Source: Atractiella rhizophila (taxonomy: Eukaryota). From it: DNA of 39,373 nucleotides. The stretch is taken from contig MU271612.1 of the NCBI GenBank assembly GCA_021432655.1, positions 1-39,373 of the forward strand. Direction: 5' to 3'. Below, one piece after another: positions 4,992 to 38,287 of the stretch (its first letter is position 1; each line of letters opens with the position of its first letter). Below the pieces are notes generated by a model that was not told the DNA's origin, did not search any database, and worked only from the letters and a program-made list of their open reading frames with translations. The position numbers and the translations under genes are program-made.

Positions 4992-5041
4992 CTTTCATTC
5001 TCGTTTGCGCGTTCTGAGCTCAAATTGAAGAGGATCCGACG

Positions 5042-9730
<4,689 letters not shown>

Positions 9731-14466: not shown

Positions 14467-16624
14467 CTTGTCGTTGTGATTCGCTACAGGATAAGCAAGA
14501 GTAGTCGCTTTTTATACGTTTGCCTCCTCTTCGAGTGGTAAAATGAAAGAACCATGCTCGAGTTCCCTCACACACGTTGAGGTGTAGGCATGCGGTTGTC
14601 CCGCCATCACGACTTCTCTTTACACGGTGGCAGTCGCCTCCTCCTACCCGTCTCCCTCATCGCAACGCGAAAAACCTTGATCATCAGGGGGAGGTGGAAA
14701 AAATGATACCCTTCGGGTTGGAGGGGCAAGTGGCAACGTTGACAGCGGAACAATATACCGCTTTGCTCCATCCATCTAACCGCTCCATCACTGCTAGCTG
14801 CATCCCCAACAGCATAGCTACGTCAGGCAGACTTTGTCAAAACAGGCGAATTTATCCCTGAAGCGGACGTCACCGTGGATTGTGCACGAGGACGGGGATG
14901 GCGTGTGGAGCGGACTGAATTGACGGCACAAGCTGCCAAGTGGTGAAGGATCGATTGAATCTACGACCGTCTGGAATGTGAAGGCTAGCGCTCGCTTCTC
15001 CACGGTACTTGGGAGATTGGATCAAGCAGCAACGCCTGTGGAGTGTGCTTACGACAAGTGAGCTATTCAGATGATGGACTATCCATCGGTTCGAAGTGTC
15101 AACGTTGGCTTCAGCATAGATTGTCGTATGGTTTTTGTGGCACTCCCTGCGGTTTGTGACGGTTTCTCATTGAATCAAACACCACTTCGTTTTTAATGAT
15201 CCAACTTAACCATCTTTTTGTAGCACGACAACAAGAGAAGGCAAACTGGACCCACATTCAAAAAAACAGCACACCGTCAAGAGCTTTCGCACACTATTGC
15301 CTGATGGACCTTGGCAATGGTCAAAAGCCGGTTGTACCGTATCCCGGTTACATCACGCCTGGAAACTGAGGCGTCTAAGATTAGGGCATTGTTGACGTTC
15401 CAGCGCGGCATAAACATTCGCCCTCCCGCAGATACTAGTGCCATTGCTGCTAGAGTGCAAGAGCGCATATGGGAGCAGGAATGATAGATCTGAGGAACGA
15501 CAGGCAATCGCAGGACTTTAATTTTGATGCAGAGGTGAAAATTAGTGTCAAAGCCATGTCGCAAGGCGCGAGGAGTCCCTTGAGTGGAAGGCATTCCAGA
15601 TCCATGACCGCCAGGAACTGTGTCATTGTCGCTTGAAAGAAACGAAAGCGCGAATACTTTAAAGACAGATCTTATTGACCTTCACATGCTGAATAGTGAG
15701 TGCTGAGAATTAGCCATCGAGTTTAAAAGGAGCCAGAGCCTGTCTCGAACCATCAATGCAGACATTGAGTGAAAGAACAATCGAATTCAGGTAGCCTACG
15801 TGATAAGGTGTGGCAGGACACTACGCCCTTAACGAGTTGATTGCGAGATGATGACCAGGATTTCGTTCGGTAGTCGTTTTATGACCGACAAATGCCATCA
15901 TCCCTGCATGCAATCAACGCTGAGCGCTGAGCCTTAGTTGTCATCATAAACGCTCACAGTGACTCAGTGAAGCAATGGTTCTGCTTGTTTAACTTTCGAA
16001 GGACCAGCTTCATGCTCGAGAGCAACTAACGATTTCATATTCAGGTTTCATGGCTGCACGTGACGCACCCTCGTCATGGCGTTGTTACAGACACTGGAGA
16101 TGCATGCAAAAAGTCATGCACGGCGCATAAATTCACGGATGTCGCAATTCCATATCCGAATGTTCCTTGGCATTTCGACGACAGGAGCTCTTTCGTCGTC
16201 AGCTGTAAAAAGTAATACTTGAATCACGAGCTTCCACTTCGAATTAGGCAGCCTAAGTCGTTGAGTTATTGGAGGATACATTCTCTCAGACAGGGAAGAA
16301 CAAAGAAAGTGCGCAGCTGCACCAGTTAAAGGTTTGCTAAGCCGAAAGAGTGGATTGTTTGCCACTGTCCTATAAGGTGAATCAACGGTTACTACAACAT
16401 TGTTTTGTTGGAAACATTTCCGAGAAACTAAAAGAGTAGCTCACATTGAAAACACCATTATTCTACACCTGCCAACCTGTGGGGAGCTATACTTGTCACA
16501 GGCGAAGACCTAAGCAGGCCTGAGTACGTACAATTTGGTTTCTCCGTATCGCATGGATGCTGTCAATTTGGATTAATTTAAGGCTATTAGGCTGACATTT
16601 TTTTGTGTGTACTCAGGATAAACC

Positions 16625-19600
16625 ATGCCAGTTGACACTCGAGAACTCCCACGGTCTACGCGCGCTCCAGCGTCAGAGGCAGATTCAGCCGGAAGCGCAC
16701 CATCTGTAAGTCGACGTCTCCTCCTGACCATCCCTGGTGGGAGAGCTCACAGTAGATCAGTTGGCATCCATCTCGACGGACGACGAGGGTCCTCCTCCTC
16801 GAAATCGTCTATACAGAGCCTCATCTAGTTCTGGTGACGACAAGGATCGTTCTAGGTTCACAGTTTTAGATGATGAAGAGGAAGAGGCGGGCGAAAGTGA
16901 AATACCCTCGTTAGGTGTACGTGACCATTTTTAGAGCTCAACAGAACCTGAATAGGCTTTTGAAGGATGATGATAGCTCGTCATCAGATGCTCCTATTCA
17001 ACAACTGAAAATTCACCAGTCGCTACCACAGGAGCGCGTTATCCCCAATAGTAACGCACTGCAGAACCGATCCAACGGTCATAATGAGTTACCTGGCATG
17101 ACGGGTCACGAAGAGGTTCAGGATTTTAAAGAATTGCCACTTTTGGAGAGGTTGGTTACGATCTCTACAATGTGTTGTTGCTGAGTTGTCTCATTTCAGA
17201 GTTACGAGCGCTTCGGAGTCCGCCATCAGCGACCTAGAAGAGGACGTGGTACCCGTCGCGGTGCAACAGTCTCCTCCGCAGGTTCAACAGCCGACGAGCC
17301 CTCAAGTCAACAAAGTGATGGTCTTGTCGGACCTGGTTGCAGAACATATTCCGGTTAAGCCAAAATTGATATTTGCAGGAGCCAAACTGAGGACTTCGTC
17401 TGACGAAGAGAGCGAAGGAGATGGTGCAGCGGATGAAGCAGAGCAAGTGAAAGATGAAGAGGGCGATCATCCTGGAGAAGAGGATTCCGAAGCCTCTGAA
17501 GAAAAGTCTGCAGATTTGACTAAGGAGGCGGAGCCGGCGGTAATCAGCATCGAGGAAGAGAAAGAAGATGTCCAGCCGAAAGAGGTCAGGATCACCGCGG
17601 TTCGCATGGCTTGGGGAGAAGACACAAGTGAAAGTGAAGTGGACGACCCTTCGCCGGAGGATGAGGACGCTGAGCTAGTAGTCCCTGAGTGGCAGTACGC
17701 TCTACTTCACTTCATCTCCCTAAATCTAATCAGTTTCAGTCCCGACCTTCTCAAACCAGACGCTGTTCGCAACTTCGGAATGCGGGCGATATCTGCATCC
17801 ATCGTGCAGGGAGGCTATACAAAAGACATCTTAACGTTGCTGCCTCAAGAAAAGGATCGTCTGCAATTCTTTCTTGCCAGTACGTTGTTTCACGGCAAAC
17901 GAAAAAGAGTGATTTCATTGTATAGATTGCACGAGACATTTGAGTCGGCTGCTCATCAAAGAGACGGCTACTCTATCCGAAACGATCGCTTATCTGACAT
18001 TCCATTCTCTCTACCAGTATTTTGTTGTCATGCCTCCTACGCTAATGAGCCCTCGAGTCAGACGGCTCGTCTCTTGGTGCAATACAACTCAGTACTTGGA
18101 AGGAACACTCGAAATGTTGTCCGTCGCGGATCCTCCACCTCCAGAGCAAGGCAATGAGAATTCCCGGAGGGAACATACCAGCGAAGACGAAGGCGTGAAG
18201 TCTGAAGGCGAAGACGATTCCAACATCCTTATCAGAGTCAAGATGACACAAAAACAACGCAAATATGATCTCCAGCAACAAAGGGCTGGCGTCAAACGCC
18301 GTTCCGACCCCTTCGCTCAGATCAGAGCTGACCCAGAAATGTTGCGGCTTTTCAAGCAAGCTGATTCTGCCATCCCAACAACACCAGAAGGGCGGGAAGT
18401 CTTTTACAACATTGGAAAATCGAGAAGCGTCGTGTGCTCAGGGTCAGTGATCGTTTAATTTGTCAACGTGAATTTGAGCAAAATCCAGGCTTTCTTCAGA
18501 GCTATCAGAACCCCTGAACTGGCTAGATACACGGAAGAGAAGTTTCTTGGCAGCGCGATGGCTACCAGCGCGTCCACTCTCGGCATCGACGAGCATGTCC
18601 CTGACGCAACACTTGAGAACCAGAAGGCGACATCGACTGCTCAAGTCGAGACGAACTATCTCGACGTGATTCCTTTCCCAAATATCCAACCGCTGAGAGC
18701 TGCGCAGATGGTAGCCTCTTTAGACTCCAAAAGTGCCTTGTACGGAAAATGGAAGATCCAACTAAGTGGCAGAGCAGGTAGGACAGGAAAGTGTTTCCGA
18801 AGTGAGCTGAAGTTCCGTTGCAGTCCGCGACTTTCGGCAACTTGGGGATCGTAAGGTACAGAAAATCATCAGTAATAAGCTTGTGCAGTTGTCGCATGGC
18901 CACTTCTCTCCTGACAACCAAAAACGCCTCACACGCAGAGAAGTTTCAAGCAACGACCAAGTCCCAATATATGAAGCGAAAGCATCGCGGGATCTTCGAG
19001 TCGTATATGAAATCGCCCTGAGAGAGGACGTCGATTTGAAGAAGGATTTCCAATATATCAGGGTAGGTTATTTGAGGCTTTGCTCAGCTAGTTAACGTCT
19101 GATTGACAGGTATGGGGTATTGCGACGCACGCGCAACTTGACGGTACAGTGAAGTAGTTTTTCGACAAAGCACGGCTGAGCTGTTTTAGATCGCTTGTGG
19201 AGCTCTCTCAACAAGGAGAGCCTTCGTCGGACACCAGAATACCTGCGTCGCATCAAGATCCGCTCAGCTCCACCGAAACATGGGAAAGAAGTGCGCGATG
19301 TTTTCGATCCTGCTCATTTCGAACATCAGGACTTCGACAGGCTAGACATGCTAGATGAAGATAACCCCGTCCGCCTGCTTACAGATGAAGAGCAATTGGA
19401 GGTGAGCGCGTGACGACCAGATCTGATTGTATTTTGCTGAACTCAGTCCAGTTGCACGAATTGATTTCCCTTGAGAAATGGGTCACGCTATCGAAAAGTC
19501 TGCTCAGCTCCATCGCAATGAATGAAGACAACGCAGCCCACATATTTGACGTTTCGCCCAAAGAACAAGAGGTTATCGATTGTCCGTCGTCACTATTCCT

Positions 19601-22600
19601 TCTAGGCCGTTCCGGAACGGGCAAGACCACCTGCATGCTTTTTCGCCTGATCGGTTTGGAGTGTGCCGTGCGACAGGAACAAGTAGATGATGCAACTGAA
19701 GTCGGGACAACAAGCACATCAAGGACGAAGCTCCGTCAACTGTTCGTCACCAAATCTCGTGTTCTCACAGCACGGTAAGAGTTCTTTTTCAATAACGCGT
19801 CACTCACTTGTCGCATCTTCGAGTGTGCGCGAATATTACCAGAAATTTGATGCAACACTAAGAGCGGGGAGCTTATCACCTGAAGAAATAAAGGAGCGAA
19901 CGAAAAGGTCCAAAGAGCGGAAAGCGAACCGGCTCGTGGACTTAGAAGACGAAGAAGAAACTGGAAATAATCTCCCAAGTAAATTCGGTGAACTCAAGGA
20001 GGAGCACTTCCCATTATTTGTATCTTTTGACCAACTTTGTAAACTTCTCGAGGAAGAGCTTCTCTTTGTTGGTGGCCCGGATACCGCCAATGTCCTTGGA
20101 GGAGAAGGAGTGCGGACTACGGCTACTACAGAGTCTGGCACGCAGTTCATTGATGCTGAAATCTTTCAATCCCAATACTGGCCTCACTTCAACCGCCTTC
20201 TCACAAAGGGGCTGGATGCGTATCTGGTGTTCTCTCAATTTGGGGTCATTCGAGGAGTGGAAAGAGATGTGAGTAACTTCATCCTGCTGTTAAAGTGACC
20301 TTACCCGAGGTGTAGCTTACAAAGGAGGAGTACCTCAAAGTTTCTGAGCGGTCGCATTCAACATATCGAGAGGCACGGCCTCAGTACGCTCTCTCCATTC
20401 TTGATATATGCATCTTACTTTAATTCTCAGGATCTATGAGCTCTTCTTAGCATACACCAGAAAGAAGGGAGAATGCAGACAATTGGATGCCGCAGATCGC
20501 GCCAGGCGCCTCCTCCGATACACAGCTACGCTCCCTCGGGATCTTCAATTTGATTTCATATACGTCGATGAAGCGCAAGACAATAACATGGCTGATTGTA
20601 TCTTGATCCGAAGCCTTGGTCGAAACGCGAATGGTAAGATATCACGCTGGTGCCGACAGCGCTCTCACTCTTGCTAAAACACAGGCTTCTTCTTTGCCGG
20701 AGACACTGCCCAAACAATCAGCTCATCTACTTTTACCTTTGCAGAATTAAAGGCGTCATTTTACCGCGCAGAGAAGAACGAAAAATTAGTAAACATTGGC
20801 GCTCGAAAACCTGTCAATCCCAAATTTTACAACCTCAATGTGAATTATCGGTGAGAAACGCACTATTCAGATGCCAACTCCACTTACATCTCTCCTTGTT
20901 AGCTCTCACGACGGCATTGTCCGCTGTGCCTCTTCAATTGTAGACCTGATACACAAGTACTTCCCTTCCTCCATCGATAAGCTGGCCCCCGAAAAGGGCA
21001 TTGTTCTCGTATGTTCTTTCCTGGGTATTTGCCCTCTAATCTTTCCTTAGGGACCAAAACCTACGATGTTCGCTGGCTGGAGATCGGACGAAAATATGGA
21101 GTTTGATCAATTTCTCTTCTCTCATGGCACCCACGCTATAGAGTTTGGAGCGTCGTACGTCCCCCCCCCTAATTGTCTCTATTGCAAGATCCCTGAGGAG
21201 TTGACGGATGGCTAAGACAATGCATCATTGTCCGGACTGAAGAGGCCAGGGATCGTCTCAGGGAGAAAATCCAAGATGCAGGGCTGATATTGACAATTTA
21301 TGAATCCAAGGGGCTGGAGTTTAGGTATGCGAGCAGCACACTCAGCGTTGGACTGAATGCGTCGGTAGTGACGTCCTTTTACTCAACTTCTTTGAAGATT
21401 CACCGGAAACTGAAGGTCAGTGGCGACTTGTATTGAACGGCATCCAAGGCAAAAAAGCTCCCAAATTTAACAATTCCAAGCATGCCGCCATACAACAAGA
21501 GCTCAAGGTAAATCCATCCTGTTTCAGCACTAACTAACAACGTTTGAAGTCACTCTATGTTGCCTGCACGCGAGCGCGTCGCAACGTTTGGATCTTTGAC
21601 ATCGGTACAAAGTCACAGCCCATGGCCGAATTCCTCTATCACCATGGTCTGGTAAAGCTCTGCTCCCCAAATGACCCAATTCCCACAATGGCACAAGCAT
21701 CCAGCAAAGAAGAGTGGTTCGAGCAAGGTCAAAACCTCTATGATCAAGGGATCCATAAACACGCAGCCTTCTGCTTTGGTAAGGCAGGAGCCCTGTGGGA
21801 GCAGCAATTCTGGTGCGTTCATCACCATCAGGCAATCTAAGTATCATGTTAAATGCGTTATAGTTTGGCTTATGTTGATATGAAACAAGCGGACCGTATT
21901 CCACTAGGAGAAGTCGTGAAGCGCAAACAGGCATACTTAACAGCAGCAGAGAAATTCGTGGCCTGTGCAGAAGAGGACGGCGCGTCTAAAGAGTTACGAT
22001 GGACCGCTTACAGGAAAGCTGCGAAGTGCTTCAGCTTCGTTGGGGATGGAAGAAGAGCAGGTCTAGCCTATTCTTCAGGCCAGGAGTTCGACAAAGCTGT
22101 CAAAGCTTTTCTGAGCGCAGAGGCTATAGATGACATTATGCCTATTCTTTCATCACACTCAGCCTTCTTGGCGAGGGGGACGAAAGAGGACGCTCGACAA
22201 ATGGGGCGACTCTTCTACTTAAAGGTCGGGAGAGTTGAAGCAGCCACCCCCCTGTTTGATGATCCGGATGATCAAATTTCTTTTCTGAAACACTGGGGCT
22301 ATCTGTCGAATGATATCCTTCAACGGCTTGGCCGACATGACCAAATCGCCATCACATTGGAACAGAGGGGTGATTACTTGGCTGCCGCGAGGGAACTACA
22401 AAGAATGCAATCGGAACAGGAGGCTGAACAATCTGTTCAACTTTTTATCAAAGCTTTGTGGCAGTCGTGCTTCACAGATGTTGATTTTTCGACCGTCGTC
22501 GGAGAAGCTGCTGACACAGCAGCAAGGCTATCGGCCAATCGTAGAGACGAAGTCATGGTTGACGTAAGCATTCTGTACAATGCCCTTCTCCTTTCTCAAG

Positions 22601-25359
22601 CTGCAGGCTAGGTGGATTTCTTCAAGGACGCTCACGACCGCGCAAAGACGATATCTTTTCTTGAAAGTTCCCTCGTCCCGGCTCCTTCAAATTCCGCCAA
22701 AGACTGGTTTCGTCTCAAATGCTGGCTGAAGACCTGGGAAATCCCCCGGTCAGGAAATACGACTAACGCATTCTCTACTATGTTGACCAGTGTAGAAAAG
22801 TTCTGCACTATTTGCCGAAGATTCTCTGCGTCAAATGTGGATCTGGATAATCGCCAATTGCAACTTCTCCTCGGTTTTCATAGATCGGTTGATCACACGT
22901 TCTCGGTTGCTCGCGCATCTTTCCACGTCAATGCAACTTCTCCTCTGAAGCTCATGCTTGAGGAAGATTCCTTTAAACAACACCTGTCATCTGGGACATT
23001 TGCTTCGAACTTTGGTTGGGAGATAAGCAGTATCGACTTGCGACTGTCAATACGAACGTTCTTCGCACGTCAAACACTCGATGAGCTTATAGCCTTTTCC
23101 TCAGTCGTACAAAGTGCGTCATTTCTGAGAGCACCATGCCACACATTTTTCGTCAATGGCAGTTGCTCCGACGACCGATGTCCTTTGCGGCACCAAGCGT
23201 CAGTGGAGGGATTAACTCTGTTAATGCGGTCCTTCAGCGTGTTCGCCCCGTCCTGGTTTACGAGTCTCTCGACTACAACACATCTTTCACAACACATTCT
23301 TCCCTTGCAACGGTAGGCCAAGCCCTATAAATTTAGAAAGGAACCTGAGGTTGGTGTCTAGGGATTGTTTGAACCGAATTGTTCATTCCCTGTTTGACTT
23401 CTCCTCGTCCGGAAACATCGTTGCAGAAATTCAAACCCGATCATTCTGGAACGCATGCACGAGGTCGAAACAAGCCCTTTTGGAGTTTCTTGCGTACGCT
23501 TCCCGTCATATCAATCCGATGGAGGAAGCGGAAACTCTTCTTTGCCCTCTGCTCTCTTGGTCGCACATGTGGATTGAGCTGGCACCGACGGAGTTTTCTT
23601 CGAACTGGAACACACTTCCTGTCGCGTCAGAGTCGATTGGTGAAGCCTTCATCTTTGAGAAAGAATCCGTGTTCACTTCTTTTGCTCGATTCTTCACAAC
23701 GAAGGACATTCTTGACAACGCCTTTATTTCCACTATCAATTTCTGCAGGTATGCCCCCCGCTTGCGGATGACTGCTCTGTCTGAACCATCAACAGGGCGA
23801 TACTCCAAAAGTCGTTAATTGTGGATGCAAATCTACTCATACATCACCTGGAACGAGTCATTGTCGCCGCTCTGGTCGGCTGGCGGTCTCAGGGACGTCC
23901 CTCTGATGGCCTTGCTGAGCATGGAGCGCCGGGATATGACGGATTGATACTGCCAACATCGTTGTTGCGCCACCTATACCCACTTGCAGCTAAGCGAGTC
24001 ACATGTTCCTTCGCAGTTCTGCATCGCTTGGCTGGGTGTACCATCCACTTCGTGGATCAAGTGAGACGGCGGATCGGTCACATTTTCTCGTCCCATTCCC
24101 TATATGCGCTGATGACAATATGTAGGGGGTCTTTTGTGCAATGGCAGAGCGGCACCTCAATGGGAGGATGCGGAAAGAGCCGTGATGTTGGACAGGCTCT
24201 GTCGATTACTCGTTCTTGCCGGACTGAATTCCAGAGACAAAGTTCTACAACAGAAGTACTTCATCTCCATTTTCGCATTGCCTTTCTAAGTAGTACATTT
24301 TACCAGGGCGACGGAGTGGCTCAACGCTCAAGCAGCGAAATTTGAGCACAAACCGCACTTGCTTGTTCAAAGGTCTGTTGTCATGACCTACTTCCGATGT
24401 CAAGCCTCATAGGTATTAGGTTTTTTGGCGATGCGAAAGGGCGTCAGTGGTCCGAAATCGAGCAAACCCTTTGGAAGAATGTACCACAAGTCCTCAAGAA
24501 GGACAATTATGTGGAAATCTTCATCCGTCCCGACACTTCCCAAACGCCGAAGGGTCAGGTATGGACGGCTGCTCTAGTGGTCCAGTCGCCACATCATCTG
24601 CGGGCCAATAAGGATCAAAATGAGGACACGCAGTCAATGAAAGAGGAATTGCCCAATGGGAGCCAGGGTAGTGCGACTGAGGAGCAAGCAGCTGCCGTAA
24701 TCAAAGCCTGGTGGAAGAATGTTAAAGAGGCTAAAGCTTATCCGCTTACAGAACGAGACGAGATCCTTTCTGCTAGACTTGGAGACATCAGAGAACTGCT
24801 TCGTTTGAAACCCGTGGGCTCGAAGCATCTTATACTAGTCCAAGGATCGGTTCCGCATGCTTTCATAGAAATTCGAAACCTGGGAATGCTGCTTGAGAAG
24901 ATGAGAAAGAAGTTGCAGAGGAGGTTAAAAGCCAAAAAGCCCGACATCGTGTCGCTTAATCACAAGATGAAGCAACTGATGTGAGTGTTCCTTGGTGTGC
25001 TACAACTGATGCATATCCACTCATGCGATGGCGATGGGGGAAGGGACATGGAAAAAAGTTTGAAGAGCATCGATGAACAGCTCGATCCTCGTTCAAAAAA
25101 ATGCCAACTGATATCCGATGACGGAACAGTCCTAAGCCTCCTGCTGCAACTACTCGAACTTCACAGACAACTTGACAGATATGCCGATGATTTGTCCATG
25201 GATCGAAATACAAGGAGCAACGTGGATTTCGACCTTCTACAGAAAATTCTCCATCCTCAACCTCGAAAATCCCAAGCCACTGTAAAGGGCATGAGAACAG
25301 GCAAGAGACCTCGCTTGATCGACGGAGAGGAAGCGGATGACGAGACTGGAGACGACTGA
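16625..25359 (+). CDS. Large TRANK1-like superfamily-1 (UvrD-like) helicase with TPR-like repeats, about 26 introns
   Basis: Spliced translation has Walker A LLGRSGTGKTT (~19605), motif Ia LFVTKSRVL, Walker B YVDEAQD (~20561), AGDTAQTI, NYR|SHDGI, TIYESKGLEF, ELK|SLYVACTRAR and TPR-like EEWFEQGQNLYDQGIHKHAAFCFGKAG. It has a long acidic N-terminus. All exons can be joined with GT-AG introns. Confidence 0.88.
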
Positions 25360-26801
25360 ATACATAAATTCAGTGCCGCTGAAGATCGTGGCACCTAACT
25401 TTCTTGATGGTTTTAGCTTCCTGATTGATTTGTGTGTTCTGGTAGTCCCACACTAGGCATTGTCTGTTAACATTAGCAAGAAATGTATTTCATCAGCAAC
25501 TTCATATTTCTCCCGGAACCTTTGCGAAGGAGTGTCCGGAGGAAATCAGCATGGATGAGTTGACACTCAAATCTAAGGGACTTTTGTGCGCTGTGGCACT
25601 CTTCTTGTTCAGCGCGCAAGTCGATGAAAAAGCTTCCCTGAGCAGATATGGAGATGAGGATCGTTGCGATGGGCAGTCTCAAGCTCATGATACAGGCTAT
25701 CATCGCAACTGAGATTCTATATCGGCACCAATCAATTGCGAGCTCGAACGGAAACAAATCAGTCTCCTGTCTGAAACGAGCTTTAACCAACTCTTCTCAG
25801 TGTGTGAGACTCATCGGTAGAAGATATTTTGAATGACGAGGTTTTTCTCGCTGTACGAGCTCAGAAGTATTCTGACCCTGATGAAGGAAGCTCAGACAGC
25901 TCTGGATGTCTCGTCGACAATATTTAAGACAGTTGAATTCGACCAAATTGGCTTGCGAAACTTTAGAATGGGATATGGAGTTGGGACCAGGTTAAACGGA
26001 GAACAAAGGAATATAACCTGATCATGACGAATTGCTGCTTTAACGCATGCTTGGTTTGTCGGTTTGATGCATAGGCAAAAGGCAAGCCAGCCAATTGGAA
26101 CAGTGAACCGGCGGTTGGTAATGCAAACATTCGCTCTCAAGCTCAGCACCGAGTACTTCGGTCTTCGTTCAGAAGAGCTACAACGAGTTAAACGGCAATA
26201 ACTTCTTCGCTATCACTCAACCGCGGAGCAACGAGGGAAGCTCATCCCGAAGTGAACTGCACACTGATTGAAACTGCTGTGGATGTGCGCTGAAATAGCA
26301 ACACCAGCAGCAGATCGTGAAGTGGACAAAGACAAAGACAAAGCATTTCCCCATCACATCGCAACAAAACAAGCTATCTCACTCGTCACATCCAACATTC
26401 CAAGTGCTAATGTGACAACAGCACAAGCCGACAACACGTCATAATTGATTGACAGGATTGTGATTTCAGTTGGGGTGGTCGATTTTGCCGCTCCGCAGTG
26501 AGGTGCTGAGAAGAAGGTTGGCGTTGCCTTTCATTTCACCCATCCACCATCGAGTCCCCTTTCCAACGTTCGCTTTTATCAATTTTCATTCGAAAAACGA
26601 GATATCGACGATTCGAGTGGATCATCAGTGGAAAGGTGAAAAATTCGTTAGCAAAGAGGAGTTTCAGCCTCAAACGACTCGGACTCACAAGGAGGGTCAC
26701 TCCCATCCCCTATCCCCTTTTTCTACGTTCAATCAGTAGACTTCTTTCAGCCACTTCGTATTCTCAGTATCACGTATCGGTTCGTATCAATCACATAATA
26801 G

Positions 26802-28949
26802 ATGGCCTCCTCACTCGTCGCAACCACGACCAACTCCAACCTCACGTCTCGAAGGAATCATCTCGCCACCTCCGATTCCACCAACCTTCCCTCGTACTCG
26901 ACCAAGCTGACGCACTCGCACCCTAATCCCATCCCAATGTCTTCGTCCTCAGCCTCGTATCAGCGGCGAACTCTTCATTCTTCGACCAACGCCGGGAATC
27001 GCCTGCGCCCACTCACTTCGCACATGGCACGGCAAGCAAACGTAGGCGATTACAGGGTGGAAAGACACCGACATGGCGCGGTGGAGAGGGAAGTGATCGT
27101 CATCGAGGACTCGCCGTCTCCTACCGAAGGAGGAAGCACCGGTGCGAGCGTGGGATCGAACGCTCCACCGCCTGCAAAACGACGGAAGGGCGGAGATGAG
27201 TCTTTTTATCCCTCTGCGATCGGACTCCCCGCTTCAGCGACTAATGCATCTTATACGAATGGAGTGTCGAGATTGAACGGAGTCGGTACGACCCCAGTTG
27301 GGACGTCGACCAAGAACAAGAGGAAGCTGGACGCTTATGTGGAAGACGGTGGTGAGGCGGCTTATCCTGCGATCAAGAAGCAGGTGCGGAACGTACGTCT
27401 ATCTTTTACCACCCTGTATGGGTATGAGAGTGATTCGCGATCATTTACCGCGGATTATAGAAGGTTGTCCCTCAACCCCTAGCTGTCACGATTCCTCCTC
27501 CCGTAGTTGTACAGGAAGAACCGTGCGATGACAAAGAAGGCCATTTCATTGTCCGTCAAGGAGTCGAGCTGGGGGGTCGATGTGAGTTTACCTTAATCCC
27601 TTACGAAGACGAGAAAACTGATTCATGGGATATTCGTTAGACCGGATATCGCGCCTCTTGGGCCAAGGAACATTCGGCAAAGTCGTTCAGTGCTACGACA
27701 ATCGAGGAGGACCGGAAGTAGCGGTTAAAGTGATGTCAGTAATGCCCCTTTCTTTGTCCTCCATATCCAGGGTTCAGCCGCTGACATGACGTGATTGCGG
27801 GCGATAGCCGGGCGGTGCAGAAGTACAGGGATGCGAGCAAAGTGGAAGTGAAAGTGCTGAAGTTGTTGAAAGAGCGCGACCCGGAGAATAGGAAGTATGT
27901 CCCTATGCTTCTGATACTCGCCAGAAATCAATTGATCGGCGTAAAACAGTAAATGCATTCACCTCCTAGACTGCTTCGACCACCGAAATCACATTTGCAT
28001 CGTCACCGAACTGCTCTCGTGCTCGGTATTCGATTTTTTGAAGGATAACGAGTATGCGCCGTTTCCTTCAAGCCAGATTCAGAGTTTTGCCAAACAGCTC
28101 TTGACATCGGTTGCTTGTCCGTTGCCCGATCCAAATTTAGACAAAGAGAATTACTGACACTTGTTGTTGGGTAGTCCTTCATGATCTGAAGCTCATTCAC
28201 ACGGATTTGAAGCCTGAGAACATTCTGCTCATCTCGAGCGAGATTCGCGGATACGGAAAAGTTTGTCATCTTCCATTTCCATCAAAGGGCAACGCGTCGC
28301 TAACGATTAATAAACAGACTCGCAGCCCTTCGAAGCTGGGCAAGAAAATCCTAAAGTCGACATCGATCCGCCTCATCGATTTCGGCAGCGCGACCTTCGA
28401 CAATGATTACCACGCGAATGTCGTGTCTACACGACACTATCGGGCGCCAGAGATCATACTGGGCCTCGGTTGGACGTTTCCATGCGACGTGTGGTCGATC
28501 GGATGCATCCTCGTCGAATTTTACACTGGTCAGGCCCTGTTCCAGACCCATGAGAACCTCGAACACCTGGCCATGATGGAAGTCGTCTTTGGACGCATGC
28601 CTCAGGGTTTGGCGAGACAGTCGGCGAAGAACAGACCCGAGTTCTTCAAGGGAACCAAGTTGGATTTTCCGAACTCGAGCACGAATCGGCAAAGCAGGAA
28701 GTTCGTGAAGGAGCAAAAGGCTCTTGGGGTTTGTCTTCCATTCTATGAACAATAACGGCGCTAATGTTTCACGTACGCGAACAGGAGGTTGTGCCGGGGA
28801 CAAATCTCGCGAATTCGAGGTTCCTCGACCTCCTTCACAAGATGCTGACGTGGGATCCGAAGGAGCGGATCAGTGTGAAAGATGCGTTGAGACATCCTTA
28901 TTTCAGTCTCCGACTCGAAGACGAGGGGTCAGAACCTTACGTCCCCTGA
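26802..28949 (+). CDS. LKH1: LAMMER/CLK-family dual-specificity protein kinase (Lkh1/Kns1-like), 7 introns
   Basis: [75 protein letters not shown]; signature [15 protein letters not shown]. Ser/Arg-rich disordered N-terminus. Confidence 0.95.
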
Positions 28950-30032
28950 AGAAAGATTTGGAGAAGCTTTCTGAGATAGGCGTAGGTTTAGAGAAGGATG
29001 TAGAGTTGAAGCAAGATGGTCTGTGTGGAACAAATGGAAGAAAGAAGGGACGAAGTTCGTAAGTTCCATATTCGAGCGTTGGTTGTGTTGCGTTGCATTC
29101 TGTGGAGAAGAAAGATGGATAAAAAGGCGATACAAGCTGCAATCCCGTTTGATGTTGCTGCCTGAAAATCAAACAAACTATCTTTGTCCTCTAACCCAAA
29201 AAAATCTGGAGAACGTTTAACCTTCGTCTTCTCTTCTACCATTTGACTTCCTCTAACTTTTCTTCACCATCTTCTCCTCTTCGTTCTATCTCATTGATTG
29301 AATTCTGTTGTGCTACCATACCACTTATCGGATTCGCAATCTGCTCCTAAATTCACCTTCAACAATCACAGGCTGTCCCCTTTTTGGAGTTAGTGAATGT
29401 ACATTTCTTTGATGCTCAGTCTTTTTCTTCCTTTTTTGTGCTTCTGACATATATTCCTCCGTACGCTCGTTAAAATCCTCTCCACCCGGCTCGCGATCAA
29501 CCAACTTTACGTATACATACTAACGATTCTGTGCTTTATTGCAATTGTGGTGAAAGAAGTGCGAAACCAAGAATCCTGCCAAATCCAGCTCCCTTGAAAC
29601 GTTATGAGGCGTTATGAGGCAACTTGCGCGTTGTTTTGATGATTGATTGATTGATTAAACTCAGCGTCTCACGAACCTTATTAGTCGCCCCCAGACCAAA
29701 CAGCCCCAGCTTCGAGTTTCAGCATCATTTTCTGGGCTTGAATACTTTGAGAAAGAACGCGTTACAATCACTGTCCGAGTAGTTCTCAGCAATATTCAAG
29801 GACCACAACTTTGCAGTTTATGAAGGCATCAAGGTACGTACCTAGTTTTTCTCCTCTAAGGATATCAATTCTGACCTTGGATTCGATGGATGGGCATAGA
29901 GCACTCTGGCATAGTCGCACCCAACACACCTTTTCTTCTCCACGCTCGACCTGCAACGTCCAACAGTAGGCTCAGTGCAGTTTGGTTTTGAGAGCCAATC
30001 ACTTGATGTACTTGGCCTAGCCTGGATATGTC

Positions 30033-33000
30033 ATGGAACAAGGGGCGACGTGGAATCCTCACGCTACTTATTATCCCACAGACCCACTACCAGCTTTCTG
30101 TCTCACTGACAATCTACCTCCAGAGGAGAATCTGAAATGTCTACTTTTGGGGAGCGCTGATCCAAAAAACATCTTATACACAATCCATGCTAGTATCAAA
30201 CTACCTAAAGGTGAAGATTCTGATCCTTGCTCAAAAGAAGCTTATCGTACACGTCACAGGTGATAGGAGATTTGATTTCACAATTTGTGATTGGCAAACG
30301 ACTGCTATCGGTCAGTACCCGCTTATTGGTAGTCTGAGGATTGCCTCACCTCCTTCATCCTCATATAGCTCGAACTATTCTCGTTCTCACCCTTATCCTC
30401 GACGATGCGCCATCCGACCAAATATTCTCCATCCTTTATCATTTCCGCATCGACAAGGGCACACTAGCGGCTTTCACAGAACAAACCATCAAGCTGTTGA
30501 AGGTAGCAAATAATGTTGACGCCTGGAACACTTCTCCATATGGCAAGGTCGTCCAATTTTGCACAACAGAGACATCGGTCAGATTTGTGGCGTATCTCAC
30601 CAGCTACTTGCAGTTTGAGATATGGAACCGAAATGAGATGAGTAGAAAGACGTTCTACGCACATTTCGAAAGGATTGCTAGATCCCGTCAGGAGGATACC
30701 GACCGTGTAGCACTGGTTCTCTCAAGATCTTTAGGGCACAGATGGGCGCATGCAGACAAGAAAAAGCTCTGTGAACTGTTCAACAATTTCTGGAGCAAGG
30801 GGACGACGCAGGAATCGAACGACGCAATCTATATCAACCCTGCTTTCGTCTACAGCATCAGAGACGGCCTGAACGAATTTGCACACTCTGCCAGGGTTGA
30901 TGCGGACTATTTCCCCCTCACCAACTTCCATCTTAGTCCATCTATCAACGCGGCCGTCCTCACGAATGCCAGTAATTTTGTCTCCGCTGCAGAACAAGAG
31001 TTTGCATCTTGGTGTAGTTCCTTTCGGTCCCAGTGTAGCTCTGCTCCGCGTTCCGTTATGATTCGCTTAGCTTGCGCCGATGCATTGGCTTTCTGTCATA
31101 CTCTACTCGCGGCCAAAACGACTGGAAAGATGTACGACGGTCGAAATGTTTCAGCCTGGGACCCCCGTCCCCTGGTTCTCGACCGCAAGAGTTACAGCGC
31201 GCCCAATGGTAGTGGAGCTCCAATGACGTTTAACGTTATCGACACCTCCACACCACGCGACTCAATGGAATTATTGGACCTCCTCGTTGCCTGTTCACCT
31301 TTACTCGAAAAGTCGCCTTCGGCGGAACTGTATGCAACATTATCTTTTCCCCTCGACGGTGATCCGTTGGCTGAACTGGAGCGTAAACTAAAGGGAGGAA
31401 TGCAAACAATTATATTGCTACTCGGAATTGCGCCAACTTCGATGCTTTCTGGTTTTTCGACTCGAGAGAACACTGCAGAAATTACATCTGCACGGCATTT
31501 TTCCAGACCCTCGAAAGATATTCTCGAGCGAGTTGGATGGAAGAGCACTGACATGGCTGACCCCATAATTTCACGTAAAAAGCTCAAATTTCAGCTCCAA
31601 TTTTCAGGAGAGCCTCTTGTATCATTGTTGAAGCCACTGGGGGCACAAGAGGATCTAGGATCGAGAACCGGATTTGCGAGTTTGCTGAGCCTGATCAAAA
31701 GGCGGCTCGACGTCCAACCATCGTGGGAAGAGGACATTGCAGCAGTCCTGGACTCGTTTCCGTCTCCTTTCTTACTGGACACACGGGTCCGCCTATTTCT
31801 CAATAAGACAATTTCTAAAGTTCCTTATACTGTCAATCTTGGACGAATGCTCTTTGAAGAAAACGTAGATCTTGTCTATAGAGAATGGAGGAAGATGGTC
31901 CCCGCAGTAGTTGTGCTCGTCATTTTAGTCCCAGGGAGCCAAGCAAGACGGATCCCCGGTCAGGCGAAGATTCAAATGGATATTATTGACAAGAGCAAGC
32001 TCGAAAATTTTCATTCCTTCATACCTTTCTCTGTCACCCTCGGCACCGCTCGCAGCGAAGGGGTAGGAGATGCAAGGACACTAGTTATCACTGAGGACAG
32101 GATGGCTTCGGATACTGCCCCACTCATTGTTCAAACTTTCGTTCCGTCAGAGCTCCTAGCTGAGAACCCAAAGAAGACGATGATAGAGCTCTTTGTGAAT
32201 TCTGACAACAAAAAGCATTTTCTGTCCCGCCTTGATCTCTCGATGAAAGAAATGCATTCGTAATCGGAACACCTCAACACGTCTCTGTTAGAGGAGCGCC
32301 TCGACCTCCACCATTTTCATTCAAGGATCGGGAAATAACGTTGAGTAAAAAGTTCAACTCCAATTCAGAAACGGTACGACTGGAAATGAAAGAAGAGATT
32401 CCACGATATGTCGTGCGAAAAGATATCCAACAAGATTCTAAGGAACTTCTGGAACTCAAACAGCGACATGCGAAGAAAGAAGTGTCGACAGATCCTGTTT
32501 CTTTGAGTTACTGCCGAATTCAATGGGGAGCCTTCTTTCGATTCTGGGCGTTCCCTTCTCCAGTAGATTATTCCCGATTTACTACGCGCATTGCGAAGAC
32601 CACTGGCTACGTCGAGGTATTTGAACTCTTTCTCCACTTAGATTGAGCTGATCCCGAGACAGGGATCAGCACCGGTGATGACAACACGACCGAAACTGAA
32701 CCCTTTCCTATTGTCCATATTTGAAGATGTCCCAGCCCTCTTCAACATCTCGCGTGTCAACTGGGATCAGGTTGTCTCCCAGCGCCGCGGTGCGTCTCTC
32801 GATAAACAGTTAATTAATAAAATCCTGCTTTCATGTTTTTCGGATGGAGAACTAAAGAAGCTTCGAAGCGGCACTCCGGAGGTTCTCACCAGAGTCAAAC
32901 ATACCATCTACACGATGTTTCAGTCTGCTACGGCAAACCCCAAGCTGTTCACTACCATTACTTTATCATCTAATCGAGCGAACTATGCCGTCGTCTTCGT

Positions 33001-33700
33001 TCAGGCGCTTGGGAAAGATATTCCCTCAGGGTCGATTGTAGCTGATTGCTGTGTGTTTCCTCTCGACGCAGCGCCAAATAATGCTCTTGAACAACAGCTA
33101 AGAGAGCTGCAACTTCAAAAGTCGTCTGTGGTGATTTCTACAGACGATGAAGAGACAAAAATGTGGAAGAGCCTCTTGCTAGCTTTTGTCGAACGGTGTC
33201 GAAGATCCTACGTCCATGCACCTCACTGTCCATGGAAGAGAGATCCAGTAACATCTGATGGGAAAGTGGTGAGGATAGAGGCGTTGTGCAATTGTGGGAA
33301 GGGGAAGGATCTTGGAGGATTCGATCTCAGGAGTCCGTTGGCCAAGCATGTCTATCGCGCTGCTTTCTCGCCACTGTTTGCCGTTCCTATCGTCGAGCTT
33401 GTCGGAAAGGATAGAGGCGGCGTTTCTGACTTGCCCTCAAAAATAGTGGACCTGGTGGGGAAGAACGAGCCCTCGCCACAGATTTCAAACCTATTGGGAA
33501 AGAACGAACCTCAGATTTCAAAACTATCGGAAAAGGACGAACCGTTACCACAGATATCAAAGCTATGCGATTTGTGTGGCATAAAGGCCAAATATAGGTG
33601 CGCCAACTGCAAACGAGTACGATACTGTTCAGTTTCACACCAACAAGAATCATATCCAGACCATTCTACCTTTTGTCAAAATGTCACTATTAGCTCATAG
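30033..33700 (+). CDS. DUF4470 (methyltransferase-like) plus C-terminal MYND zinc-finger protein; frame break at ~32236-32263
   Basis: N-terminal YYP...CLTDNLPPEENLKCLLLGSADPKNILYT, FDFTICD...I|ARTILVLTLI, FNVIDTS; FVERCRRSYVHAPHC...LCNCGKGK; YRAAFSPLFAVP; MYND finger CDLC...CANCKRVRYCSVSHQQESYPDHSTFC. Confidence 0.8.
33443..33564 (+). repeat. In-frame tandem repeat of ~33-39-bp units in the linker before the MYND finger
   Basis: CAGATTTCAAA / CAGATTTCAAA / CAGATATCAAA at 33479, 33512 and 33551; peptide LVGKNEPSPQISN-LLGKNEPQISK-LSEKDEPLPQISKL. Confidence 0.8.
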
Positions 33701-34023: not shown

Positions 34024-35470
34024 TCAAACTTTTACTGGCTTTGGCACCTCCAATCCACTCAAGTTCTTCGGTGGCTCAACTTGTGGTTCTCCTTCCGGCG
34101 TCTATCCATCATCGCTCAGTCTTCAACTTTCTCTCAAAATATCTAAAGGAAAGGACGCACAACATAGCAGGCTGAGAGTCCACCATCCACTTTGAAGTCG
34201 GCTCCCTATTCCCTCTGCTTTCAGCATAGCCACCAACAACAAAAGACGAAAGACGGACGGTGACGTAGCTCGAATCGTCTGATGCCAAAAACAGAACAGC
34301 CTTAGCTTGCTCGATTCCCTCGCCGAACCTGCCCATGGGCAAATGGACCATTCGACGATCACGTTTCTCGGGAGTGTTAAGGTAGTCCATCAGAAGGGGT
34401 GTTTTCAGTGGGCCACTTGCAATCATCGTCAGCGATCGATAAAGGATGCGAAAGGTGTGGAATGGGCAAAGGTAAGACTAACGGGCATAGGGCATTCAAA
34501 CGGATCCCTTCCCGCGCGTGTACCATCGCCAGCTCCCTCGTCAACGCAAGGACGCCTCCTTTCGAAGCCGTATCTAACAGGAATCACACGGTCAGGTATC
34601 ATTCTCTAGACATTTTTTAGAACCGAAGAGTACAACTGGCTGACCAGAGGTAAACCAACAACTCGAACTCGCGCTCAAGAGAAAAAGGAAGATGATGGTA
34701 AAAGGGCTGAGAAGCAACGCAACTACCAGAAGAAGGAGGGTGAAGACGCACAAGCTAACTGGGGAGTAGCAGCACCCATGACCGCCACGAATGAAGCTGT
34801 ATTAATGATGCTTCCACCACGAGCTTCAGGTGGGTTGTCCCGCATGGCCTGGATGGCGTATTTGCAACCCCACCAGACCCCTTTCAAGTTGATGGTCATG
34901 GTTAGGTCCCAGATTTTCTCGGTCGTTGTGAGCGCATCTCCGTCATCCGGGTGCATTATCCCTGCCTATAAAAGCGTGAAACGATGTTGAGCATCGTATT
35001 TTTGGATATATAGTAGCGACGATATGAAAAGAAGGGAATCAGTGGGAGGAATGGTGGATGAGGAGAGAAAACAGACGTTGTTAAATACCACATCCACCCT
35101 GCCGTACTCCGATTTCGCTTTCCCAATCATGTTCTTTACGTCCTCTTCCTTGCCCACGTCGGCGACAAACGTGACTACTTTCCCATTCGGTGGAGGTGAG
35201 AGCTGATTGATCTGGTCGACTGTCTTCTGGAGCGACGATGGGGAGATATCCGCGAGCAGCAGATTGGCACCTTGACACGAATCCAACCCCAGTTTATGGC
35301 TTGGTGATCTGGTGGAGAAACCACGCACCTTCGATAGCGAACAAGAGGGAAGTCTCCAATCCGATTCCTGAGCCAGCTCTATGATCGCATCAACCAGGCG
35401 GGCTCCCGATAAATACAAAAGATAAAGCGCACCCCGTAATAACAGCAGTTTTTCCTTGCAATCTACCCAT
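34024..35470 (-). CDS. Classical short-chain dehydrogenase/reductase (SDR, FabG-like), 7 introns
   Basis: MGRLQGKTAVITG|AGSGIG (TGxxxGxG), VVFNN|AGIMHP, IINTASFVA, catalytic Y|TASK, NALCP|GPLKTP, FLASDDSSYVT|GADFKVDGG; stop at 34024-34026. Confidence 0.93.
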
Positions 35471-35647
35471 AGTGACACTTTCACGGTAAGACCTGTTTCC
35501 AACGAAATCTCAGCGTGGGAAGGGTCAGTAAAAGTAGCTTGCTTGTTTAATTTTGCTGCATGGATGACTGGGAGGATAAGAAAGAGGACCAAGTAGAACT
35601 TCACTCAACTCGCGATCACCAGCAACCACAGAAAGTTCGAAGGCAGC

Positions 35648-38287
35648 ATGCAACGCCAGCCAGGTCCTCCTGCGGGACCTCCGCCAATCGCAGAAAACCA
35701 GCTGATATCATTCAAAGTCCTTCGCGCGTCCAGGCCGTCCTTCTCCCACTCAGTTCGGTGCGCATTTCATCCCTTCAATGGCACGTCTGAATAAACAGCC
35801 AATAGACCTTACTTTGAAGACGAGACGTTGACTGGCTATGGAAAGCACCTCAGAGCAGCGGCGGTGAAGGACTTAGGCAGTAACCAGAGGGAGATTGATA
35901 TCGGTGGTGCTGCTGGAGCGAGGGACGATCCGACGACGAATGTGCTTTCACTCCCTTCAAATTTCGGTGTGGTGTCGCTGGGAGAGACATGTGCGTCTCC
36001 CTTTTCTTGAGAAAAAGATCAAAGCTGGTATTGAATTGTTGCTTGTTGGGAAGTCACGGTGTTCATCTCCCTCACTTCCATTTCTCCCACCCTTCTACAC
36101 AATCCTCGGCTCACAGTAACCATTCAAACCTCCTCTAACCTGCACACCCTCCCTCTCCAAACAGCTCTCCCAGAGTTCCTGCGCGCGGGCGAGACGTACG
36201 AGACGGTGGTATCCCACGATGTGAAGGAGCTGGGTGGACACTCCTTAGTTTGTAGCGTCAGCTATCAGGTGAATGGCGAGGAACGAGGCTTTAAGAAAAC
36301 ATATAAATTTCAGGTAAGCTCTTCCTTGAAGAAAGGTAGCCGTTGATGATGAACGAGATAGGTCTCAAATCCCTTGAGTGTGAGGACTAAGGTACATACG
36401 CCTAAGAGCCCGAATGCCATGTTCGATAGAACGGAGAAGAATAAGATCTACCTAGAAGTTCAAGTCTCCAACATTTCGCCAACACCACTCTCTTTCCAGT
36501 CCCTGATCTTCGAGCCGGCCCCTGGTCTGGCACATCAGGACCTAAACACAGGCATCTTCGAGCGTACCACCGACGTGATAAGCTCGGGAGACGTCAGGCA
36601 GTATTTGTACATAATCTACCCAACCCCGGGGACGGAGGATGCTTATGAACCCCCAAAGAGCGGCGCTCAAGCTTTAGGGAGACTAGATATTATGTGGAGG
36701 ACAAGCATGGGAGATTCGGGACGGCTGCAAACGAGCCAGTTGACAAGGAAGATCCAACCATCGACTCTACTGTCACAGCCTATCGCTTCCACAAATCGCG
36801 ATCCTATTCCTCCACCTCCTCAACCAGCAACAGCTCCCAAACTCAATGTCCCAGCCGGGCCGCACGCACCGCGCTCTCCTTCCCCTCGACTAGCTCTACA
36901 GACTCAATTACCTCCCTCCTCGACGCCAGGAGCACCGGGAAAGCTCTCACTCAACACTTCTCTCGTACCGCCCTCGCCCGCAACCTACGCCCTCACACCA
37001 TCCTCCCCAAGTGGCATGCACGGTCTTCCAACCGGACTCCCCCTCTCTCCAGATTCTCCCCTTCCTACTCCTTTGTCTCCATTTCCCATCCGTGGCATCC
37101 ATCAAATCTCGTTAGGAAGAGATGGCGCATTAGTCACGCCAGGATTCATGACCAGAAATCCATCGCCCCTAACTGGGGACGGCAGAGGGGTACGCACCCC
37201 TGTTCCTGGCGCAACATCTGAAGAAGGGGGTGGAGACAAAGGACGAAAGGTCGTGAAGCCTTCTGTAGAAGGGTTAGAAGTCGACCTTTTTGTCGACGGT
37301 CCTACTCGGGGGAGCGTGGGAAAGTCGTTTGAGTTACAATTCAGGGTGCGCGTAAAAGGCGGGGAAGGCTCCGCGAAGAGGAGGATCGCTCTCGCAGCTC
37401 AGTTTGTGAACCATCATTCGAGTGCCATGGCCAGGAGACGGCTCCAAATAACTGAAGAAGCTCTCAGTCCCCTCGCCAAGCATCTACTTCACGAAACTCT
37501 CCAGTCCCCTATGACACTCCCCAATTCCCTACCCTCCCCACCGACTTCGAGGCCAGGCAGCGTGGCAGGTACGCGTAGAGGAAGTACGAGTACCGTCACC
37601 TCTCATGCTCCTTCCTCAGCTTCTCCTAGCGTGGGAGGAGGAGCGACGACAACGAGGTCACATCCTCATCCCCTCTCCCAGTCTCTCACAAGAAAATCAT
37701 CCTCCAGCTCAGTGGGAACGATGACACCTCGACGCAACACACTCACTGCTTTCACTGGAGAAGGAACCACTGTCTCTGGCACACCGCGGACGTCCTTGGA
37801 TGGCGATGGAGAAGATGTACTCCCCAACTTTTTGTCAGAAGGGACCGTGCTACTCCCTCCTCCGAGACCAATTTCGAAGCAAAAGGACAAGAAAGAGGAA
37901 AAGGATATCCCTTCGAAGGACATTAAGCTTATGGGTGCCACTTTTGCGCAGTTGGGTGAAGTGGCTTTGGATGAGGGAGCGGGAATGGAGAGCACACCCA
38001 CGACGAGGAGGGGACAAGATCTGTTGGGCAACGAGCCAGCCACACCGTTGCCTTTGACTCTGTCTAATGCTGAGACGGAGAAGAAGTGGTCTTGGTCTTT
38101 TGTACCACGGAAACAAGGTATGATTCGTGTTGGAGGGCTTAGGATTTTGGTACTGGAGGATGTGGAAGAGAAAGGGGGCGGAGAGACGGAGGAGAAGGCG
38201 GGGATAGATGTTGTTAAGCAGGCAGAAGTATTGAAAGAGTGGGACGTCATTCGGGAACTGTGGATAGCGGGTCCGGCACCGTTGTAG
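35648..38287 (+). CDS. TRAPPC13: TRAPP complex subunit 13 / Trs65-like (DUF974) protein with Pro/Ser-rich insertions, 3 introns
   Basis: LISFKVLRASRPS; LSLPSNFGVVSLGET|F; VSHDVKELGGHSLVCSVSY...FKKTYKFQ|VSNPLSVRTKVH; IYLEVQVSN; DVRQYLY; LGRLDIMWRTSMGDSGRLQTSQLTR. Confidence 0.85.

Follow-up and report, generated by a model that had tools for sequence, protein, structure and literature searches.

Does a gene of the fungus Atractiella rhizophila encode a domain with the fold of the RelE/ParE toxins, and if so, could that domain cut RNA beside the helicase that follows it? Toxins of RelE/ParE type are characteristic of the toxin-antitoxin and defence systems of prokaryotes. The question arises from a stretch of 39,373 nucleotides (nt; NCBI GenBank assembly GCA_021432655.1, contig MU271612.1, positions 1 to 39,373 of the forward strand; hereafter the window), in which an earlier reading of the letters, the original prediction, had placed a RelE/ParE-like fold split over three exons at 18750-19143, directly upstream of a superfamily 1 (SF1) helicase. 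As judged from structural models of its homologues, the segment does encode a BECR-fold domain that belongs to the RelE/ParE superfamily and, within it, to the RNase type (YoeB/YafQ/RelE-like), and the homologue alignments indicate that it is a fixed module of a multi-copy Agaricomycete family. The explanation that best accounts for the whole, a genuine RNase-type RelE/ParE domain fixed in an Agaricomycete helicase family and acting as a putative endoribonuclease, is held here with moderate confidence.

The interval 18750-19143 reads as originally proposed, with three exon pieces that give ~108 residues after removal of two GT..AG introns. A gene model made by a splice-aware dynamic programme and then curated against RNA sets this interval within one long gene, the frame of which is open from the first ATG (16625, preceded by an in-frame stop at 16619) to the stop codon at 25357-59. 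The encoded protein comprises, in order, an N-terminal region, the RelE-like domain (residues 611-718), a UvrD-type helicase and a long C-terminal helical part, and tblastn matches of homologues cover 18345-22464 of the window. The gene and the parts that make up the domain and its junction with the helicase are as follows.

16625..25359, + strand: whole gene; 28 exons, 27 introns, 2475 amino acids (2476 if the intron at 21152-21216 starts at 21155)
18741..18777, + strand: RelE-like domain piece 1; first strand WKIQLS and start of helix 1; profile positions 3-15
18778..18823, + strand: domain intron 1; 46 nt, GT..AG
18824..19062, + strand: RelE-like domain piece 2 (exon 2); 80 amino acids with helices 1-2, loop, strands and start of the last strand
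18913-18930, + strand: DNQKRL loop, within piece 2
18970-18987, + strand: strand with YEAK, within piece 2
18988-19014, + strand: strand with DLRVVYEI, within piece 2
19063..19109, + strand: domain intron 2; 47 nt, GT..AG, RNA-supported
19110..19143, + strand: RelE-like domain piece 3, VWGIATHAQLD; end of the last strand, conserved His and start of the C-terminal helix
19125-19136, + strand: THAQ with the conserved His, within piece 3
19144..19189, + strand: intron 3; 46 nt, GT..AG, placed by frame and profile continuity (RLW)
19190..19604, + strand: domain-helicase linker; contains an intron at 19402-19451, and its start (DRLW) completes the conserved helix

The exon end of piece 1 at 18777 falls in phase 1, after WKIQLSGRA and the opening base of a Val codon; its Trp is conserved in 168/170 family rows, and a frame that reads through intron 1 encounters a stop at 18852-54; beyond intron 3 the frame continues to the Walker A motif of the helicase. 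Against a family hidden Markov model (HMM) built without the window row, the spliced product aligns over profile positions 3-108 without a gap at the exon junctions and scores 113.5 bits (E value 2.5e-37), whereas the best unspliced frame reaches 79.8 bits and covers positions 8-93 only. What the two small flanking pieces contribute is thus exactly the first conserved strand and the final strand that bears the His, and the two introns originally proposed within the domain, 18778-18823 and 19063-19109, are both upheld by this gain in score.

Run X2 has contigs over every one of the 30 bins of the gene, and these skip GT..AG introns at no fewer than 15 joints, out of 27 introns, which identifies X2 as derived from RNA; four further introns are backed by X2 loose ends that exactly match the far side of the predicted introns. 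One of these four, intron 19063-19109, is confirmed by an X2 contig that runs from 19109 onward and is preceded by 12 letters identical to 19050-19061. Introns 18778-18823 and 19144-19189 are absent among the RNA joints listed and are predicted from splice signals, frame and profile alignment. A second run, X1, from a root metatranscriptome, yielded only two 151-nt contigs, over 19530-19868, too little to use. The gene is expressed and intact. That the domain should be a chance resemblance arising from joined open frames, or part of a decayed pseudogene, is an extremely improbable reading that could draw on the absence of two of the three introns among the listed joints; it is excluded by the transcription and splicing of the gene, by its open product of 2475 residues, by the profile match at 2.5e-37 and by >300 homologues with the same architecture. 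The resemblance in fold is more than chance.

At the joint spanning 21152-21216, one X2 contig has an additional three letters (ATC) where the two sides meet, and a G/A difference at 21152; the extra letters would move the intron start by 3 nt to 21155 and add one codon to the model. Over 16500-25600 (9.1 kb), X2 and the window differ at 81 single letters and by two small indels, with contigs 90-99% alike, which makes it likely that X2 comes from a different strain or haplotype, either of the same species or of one very close to it.

The fold was examined with AlphaFold2 (AF2) on homologue domains. The model of the P0004 domain, from Rhizoctonia solani, the closest full-length homologue (55% identical to the window over exon 2), is confident, with a predicted local distance difference test (pLDDT) score of 89.4 and a predicted template modelling (pTM) score of 0.81. 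Its elements run strand, helix, helix, three long strands and a C-terminal helix beginning at the conserved His, and this matches the BECR fold with its N-terminal strand, two helices and antiparallel sheet of three long strands in ~90-110 residues. In a Foldseek search of this model against PDB, all 15 matches at E<=1e-3 are of YoeB/YafQ/RelE type, with target-normalised TM scores of 0.64-0.81, and the best 50 rows of a VIA-align comparison all belong to the RelE/ParE superfamily. The ranks within that comparison separate the branches: the 13 best rows are RNase-type toxins, the first ParE-like row stands at rank 14, and classical ParE scores ~10.0-10.6. A second homologue's model, compared with 48,161 chains, places RelE/ParE-superfamily toxins in seven of its eight top rows. 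A search of the ESM Atlas gave best scores of 0.84-0.89, under the tool's meaningful level, with a RelE/ParE cluster only at rank 27. The split RelE/ParE layout set out in the original prediction is in this way borne out element by element, by the AF2 homologue model, the Foldseek comparison that it had called for and the structural alignments.

At the level of sequence the similarity is faint. Exon 2 alone matched no Pfam family, and a PDB sequence search with it gave nothing useful. A profile of alignment A1 (32 homologue cut-outs plus the window's exon 2, mean column identity 54%) searched against PDB sequences found as its best matches two YoeB chains, aligned from residue 3, at E values of 0.042 and 0.19.

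Which residues of a toxin active site does the family keep? Conservation was counted over 209 family rows from 200 proteins, with positions numbered on the P0004 cut-out.

N48: kept in 198/199 family rows; present in the window
K50: kept in 186/200 family rows; present in the window
E63: kept in 189/201 family rows; present in the window
A64: kept in 201/201 family rows; present in the window
K65: kept in 191/201 family rows (+6 with Arg); present in the window
D69: kept in 181/201 family rows; present in the window
R71: kept in 197/201 family rows; present in the window
H99: kept in 139/149 family rows; present in the window

The hhalign alignments pair E63, K65 and R71 with K52, K54 and R61 of RelE, of which we take K52 and K54 to be active-site positions, and K65, D69 and R71 with R59, E63 and R65 of YoeB. 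The conserved His falls opposite His83 of YoeB at the ends of the structural alignments (model residue 99 with 83 in 2a6r_C, and 379 with 84 in 2a6q_E), a pairing read from alignment ranges and not from residue pairs. In the available text of a study of YoeB, catalysis is described with Glu46 as general base and His83 as general acid, a transition state stabilised by Arg65 and Arg59, and Glu63 stacked on the third base (PMC3814384); R61 and R81 of RelE are named as active-site residues in that of another (PMC3482391). Retention of the residues aligned with RelE K52/K54/R61 and YoeB R59/R65/H83 is 93-98% across family rows, and the domain has the marks of the RNase branch, namely a strand-3 Arg, basic residues in strand 2 and a His at the C-terminal catalytic position after the last strand. 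Candidates for the general base are E63 (189/201), which is favoured, and D47/N48, also conserved, where the YafQ equivalent is His50. Conservation of the residues aligned with the RelE and YoeB active sites, in the window as in the rest of the family, argues for an active RNase, and we judge the odds to be roughly even that the domain is an active endoribonuclease with a YoeB-like Glu/Lys/Arg/His set.

Several observations weigh against a catalytic RNase. Similarity to bacterial toxins lies under every curated threshold: no Pfam family other than ParE_toxin is matched by several members (4/33, best E value 0.0095, under the gathering cut-off), and hhalign gives an E value of 0.0047 with a probability of 7% against the single E. 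coli RelE and an E value of 0.015 with a probability of 3% against YoeB. The loop between helix 2 and strand 2 is aligned differently in two comparisons, which leaves the counterpart of YoeB Glu46 not placeable; a clustering of the conserved residues in space is suggested by the alignments only; and the AF2 models are of homologue domains, not of the window's own spliced product. These points leave room for a domain that retains the RelE fold but is non-catalytic, binding the ribosome, RNA or a partner and thereby targeting or regulating the helicase. Marginal sequence similarity to active toxins and the lack of a clear Glu46 counterpart would fit such a module, as would the RelE-like 'RNase toxin-like' (RTL) domains of the CoCoNuT systems, described in the available text as having no sequence conservation with known toxins (PMC11090510). 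We consider it unlikely, though deserving of weight, as polar residues at active-site positions are kept in 93-98% of ~150-200 rows against a mean column identity of 54% in A1, and this precise combination of residues is more than a pure binding module should require.

The family to which the domain belongs is large. With exon 2 as query, an exhaustive phmmer run over 1.84 billion proteins gave 109 matches at E<=1e-3, 106 of them true family members; the other three (P0059, P0081 and P0095, bacterial STAND/WD40-type proteins at E values of 3e-5 to 5e-4) fail the family HMM and were dropped as chance matches. The 'GHFSPDNQKRL' stretch of exon 2 resembles a WD40 repeat motif and is the probable cause of those three matches. 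A word-indexed homologue search with exon 2, covering only proteins up to 2000 amino acids, found no match. A profile search returned 114 proteins, of which all with an organism name are Agaricomycetes, from Cantharellales, Sebacinales and Auriculariales to Agaricales, Boletales, Russulales and Polyporales. A query consisting of the helicase portion of P0010 matched 2319 proteins at E<=1e-5, and all those named among the 120 listed are again Agaricomycetes; among the matches listed, 101/102 new homologues picked by the helicase alone have the RelE-like domain. Medians over 167 long homologues put the domain start at residue 282, the gap from the domain end to Walker A at 111 residues and the length at 2155 amino acids. 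Several species have multiple copies, some of them apparently adjacent, to judge from consecutive locus tags on a shared contig (Epithele typhae 104875/104876; Rhizoctonia solani AG-8 10106/10107) or, in Heliocybe sulcata, from two family proteins on one contig.

Outside this group the searches were negative. The profile and exhaustive searches found no such RelE-like domain outside Agaricomycetes, and the profile had no match in E. coli K-12. Scans of prokaryotic genome contigs with two short patterns each, taken from the domain alignment (124 pattern matches) and from the helicase alignment (600 pattern matches), confirmed none, which is weak evidence of absence. The original prediction had looked to fungal and animal TRANK1-like proteins alike for conservation of three residues; the fungal side of this held (K of YEAK 191/201, R of DLR 197/201, H of TH 139/149), and the domain was not found beyond Agaricomycetes, nor in animal TRANK1, with which no direct comparison was made.

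What stands beside the domain? The downstream features are listed first, and bear both on the substrate of the domain and on its likeness to known systems.

19605..21579, + strand: UvrD-type SF1 helicase core, from its motifs and from Pfam matches in homologues
19605-19628, + strand: Walker A, GRSGTGKT
20561-20581, + strand: Walker B, YVDEAQD
21559-21579, + strand: VACTRAR
21550..21812, + strand: first TPR-like repeat, directly past the helicase; weak (TPR_2, E value 0.014, under the Pfam cut-off)
23137..23193, + strand: CCCH-like zinc-finger motif C-x8-C-x4-C-x3-H; sub-threshold (zf-CCCH_12, E value 0.052; zf-CCCH, E value 0.097)

A helicase directly downstream, as first proposed, is evident from the Walker A and B motifs in the window and from Pfam UvrD-helicase, UvrD_C and AAA_19 matches in 4/4 full-length homologues; on the window itself, UvrD-helicase matches weakly in the open reading frame (ORF) at 20405-20674 (E=0.0023). 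The fusion to a helicase and TPRs that had been envisaged stands for the helicase, and for the TPRs comes down to weak, sub-threshold Pfam matches in the window; TPR_1 matches 1/4 homologues (E=4e-4). No ankyrin repeats were detected in four homologues (Pfam E<=0.001) or in 12 window ORFs (E<=0.01). The CCCH-like motif (C-x8-C-x4/5-C-x3-H), ~1200 residues downstream of the RelE-like domain, keeps its relative position in 128/156 homologues of at least 1800 amino acids, P0007, P0016 and P0026 among them, and its three Cys columns are nearly invariant. Matches to the PADLOC GajB models and to the RecB and PcrA models of NCBIfam are modest, such as would be expected of any helicase in the UvrD family.

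Parts of this context sit less easily with an RNA-directed toxin. Helicases of the UvrD family typically work on DNA, RecB and PcrA are the NCBIfam models that match best, the genes nearby are housekeeping ones, and no antitoxin-like partner was recognised, the N-terminal bundle of a homologue included. The N-terminal region was considered as an antitoxin or known domain and set aside: the first 235 residues of the homologue form a confident helical bundle with only generic helical-bundle matches. A ParE-like or otherwise DNA-directed nuclease, paired with a UvrD-type DNA helicase and acting on DNA or topoisomerases in repair, recombination or the restriction of foreign DNA or transposons, would suit the helicase; we regard it as quite improbable, given that the structural ranking begins with 13 RNase-type rows before the first ParE-like one, that YoeB supplies the best sequence matches, and that the Arg/His/Lys set is that of RNase active sites. 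The CCCH-like motif points weakly to RNA as well.

A RelE-like domain fused to a helicase has precedents in bacteria. YoeB, YafQ and RelE are ribosome-dependent mRNA interferases; the fungal domain differs from them in being eukaryotic, split by introns, set at residue 611 of a 2475-residue protein, accompanied by no recognised antitoxin gene or domain, and similar to them in sequence only below threshold. ArmD of the ARMADA type II system (E. coli) has, in the available text of its description, a RelE-like domain N-terminal to a UvrD-family (GajB-like) helicase, and anti-phage defence depends on ArmD and on its Walker A motif (10.1101/2025.09.15.676423). ArmD and the fungal family thus share a RelE-like domain N-terminal to a UvrD-family helicase in one polypeptide, but ArmD, as described there, has 704 amino acids, lacks a C-terminal solenoid and belongs to a four-gene operon, whereas the fungal gene lies among housekeeping neighbours. 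An ArmD homologue (P0310), located in E. coli ATCC 8739 via a published primer, matched the fungal family in BLASTP at E values of 0.19-0.26 through generic helicase motifs only, hhalign did not pair the RelE-like parts of the two, and the window holds no ArmA-C-like neighbours of the kind expected from an armABCD operon. Kinship with ArmD was rejected because specific sequence similarity is lacking, and the likeness is one of architecture, not demonstrable descent.

CnuH of CoCoNuT types II and III-A has an RTL domain of RelE/colicin-D fold N-terminal to an SF1 helicase, and CoCoNuT is a predicted RNA-targeting defence system, according to the available text (PMC11090510). Its helicase is described there as UPF1-like, and CnuH as having an SmpB-like OB fold and McrBC partners, whereas the fungal helicase matches UvrD/Rep, RecB, PcrA and GajB models and not UPF1-like ones, and neither the OB fold nor such partners were seen in the fungal case. 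Cami1 is a CARF-RelE fusion with a structure solved on the ribosome (PDB 8phj, 8phb); it is prokaryotic, and what regulates it is no helicase but a CARF domain that senses cyclic oligoadenylate. The helicase adjoining Tiamat type I-K also has an N-terminal RelE-like domain. TRANK1 and the fungal family are both large and combine a UvrD-like helicase with TPR-like repeats (by weak matches in the fungal case), and differ in the ankyrin repeats, none of which were found in the homologues and ORFs searched; the TRANK1 name occurs once among the homologues, as the source's label.

Among the published accounts, a 2025 survey of mono- and multidomain RelE/ParE toxins lists, in its available text, 13 eukaryotic genes, all of them toxin-antitoxin fusions, and uses the word 'helicase' 0 times (PMC11980606); a 2026 preprint on BECR classification also does not use the word. 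No literature linking RelE/ParE domains to fungal or TRANK1-like helicases was found in a search whose scope excluded subscription journals and bioRxiv supplements. As far as could be searched, the family is undescribed, and the architecture with a helicase has so far been described only in bacterial anti-phage proteins.

How might such a protein work? In the preferred reading, E and K of strand 2, R of strand 3 and the His past the last strand would serve as base, transition-state stabilisers and acid, in the manner of the Glu/Arg/His residues of YoeB. The ATP-driven helicase and the C-terminal repeats may control how the domain reaches RNA, which could be mRNA in the A site of the ribosome; E. 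coli RelE cuts A-site codons on eukaryotic ribosomes, as reported in the available text of the survey (PMC11980606). More speculatively, the protein could be a single-chain effector of RNA surveillance or of antiviral or nonself defence, comparable to the bacterial RelE-helicase defence proteins. The multi-copy, tandemly duplicated family and the bacterial precedents would, by analogy, fit surveillance or defence without demonstrating either. A bolder version seems to us doubtful: that the protein is the eukaryotic counterpart of ArmD and CnuH, a single-chain, ATP-gated and ribosome-directed mRNA interferase in a family that has multiplied, often in tandem pairs, and that shuts down translation in innate defence against mycoviruses or other nonself RNA, its ancestry possibly common with prokaryotic RelE-UvrD-solenoid proteins and with TRANK1-like helicases elsewhere among eukaryotes. 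The combination is a RelE-fold domain on an SF1 helicase, here eukaryotic and with a large solenoid and a CCCH-like tail. Should the domain prove active, it would represent a native eukaryotic use of a ribosome-directed bacterial toxin fold, a testable function for a large family annotated only as hypothetical or 'UvrD-like helicase', and another immune module common to bacteria and eukaryotes.

Why has the domain gone unannotated? No precomputed Pfam domain lies over the RelE-like segment among the homologues listed; these go by hypothetical, 'P-loop NTPase' or 'UvrD-like helicase', and a single one (P0276, Hypsizygus marmoreus) by 'TPR and ankyrin repeat-containing protein 1'. Many public proteins break off or turn to nonsense right past the conserved 'RLV' of strand 3 (P0020, P0021, P0024, P0025, P0044, P0062, P0072-P0074, P0089, P0091-P0093, P0096-P0100, P0105, P0110 and P0111), and their models apparently continue into an intron that was left unspliced. 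The position after 'RLV', where the public models break, thus seems to be an intron site in most homologues; the window has no intron at this place, and its own intron lies 16 codons further on. Such gene-model errors may help to explain the missing annotation.

The remaining genes recognised in the window are as follows, and there is no sign within it of a defence island or a second paralogue.

5018-9295, + strand: SMC_N ATPase head
26802-29059, + strand: protein kinase
32642-33697, + strand: zf-MYND protein
34969-35604, - strand: short-chain dehydrogenase
36362-38284, + strand: TRAPPC13

The N-terminal region of the window's protein, at 610 amino acids, is ~330 residues longer than the family median (domain start 611 versus 282). 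It contains an acidic, Asp/Glu/Ser-rich stretch of low complexity (window 17102-18154), and the region is transcribed and spliced in X2.

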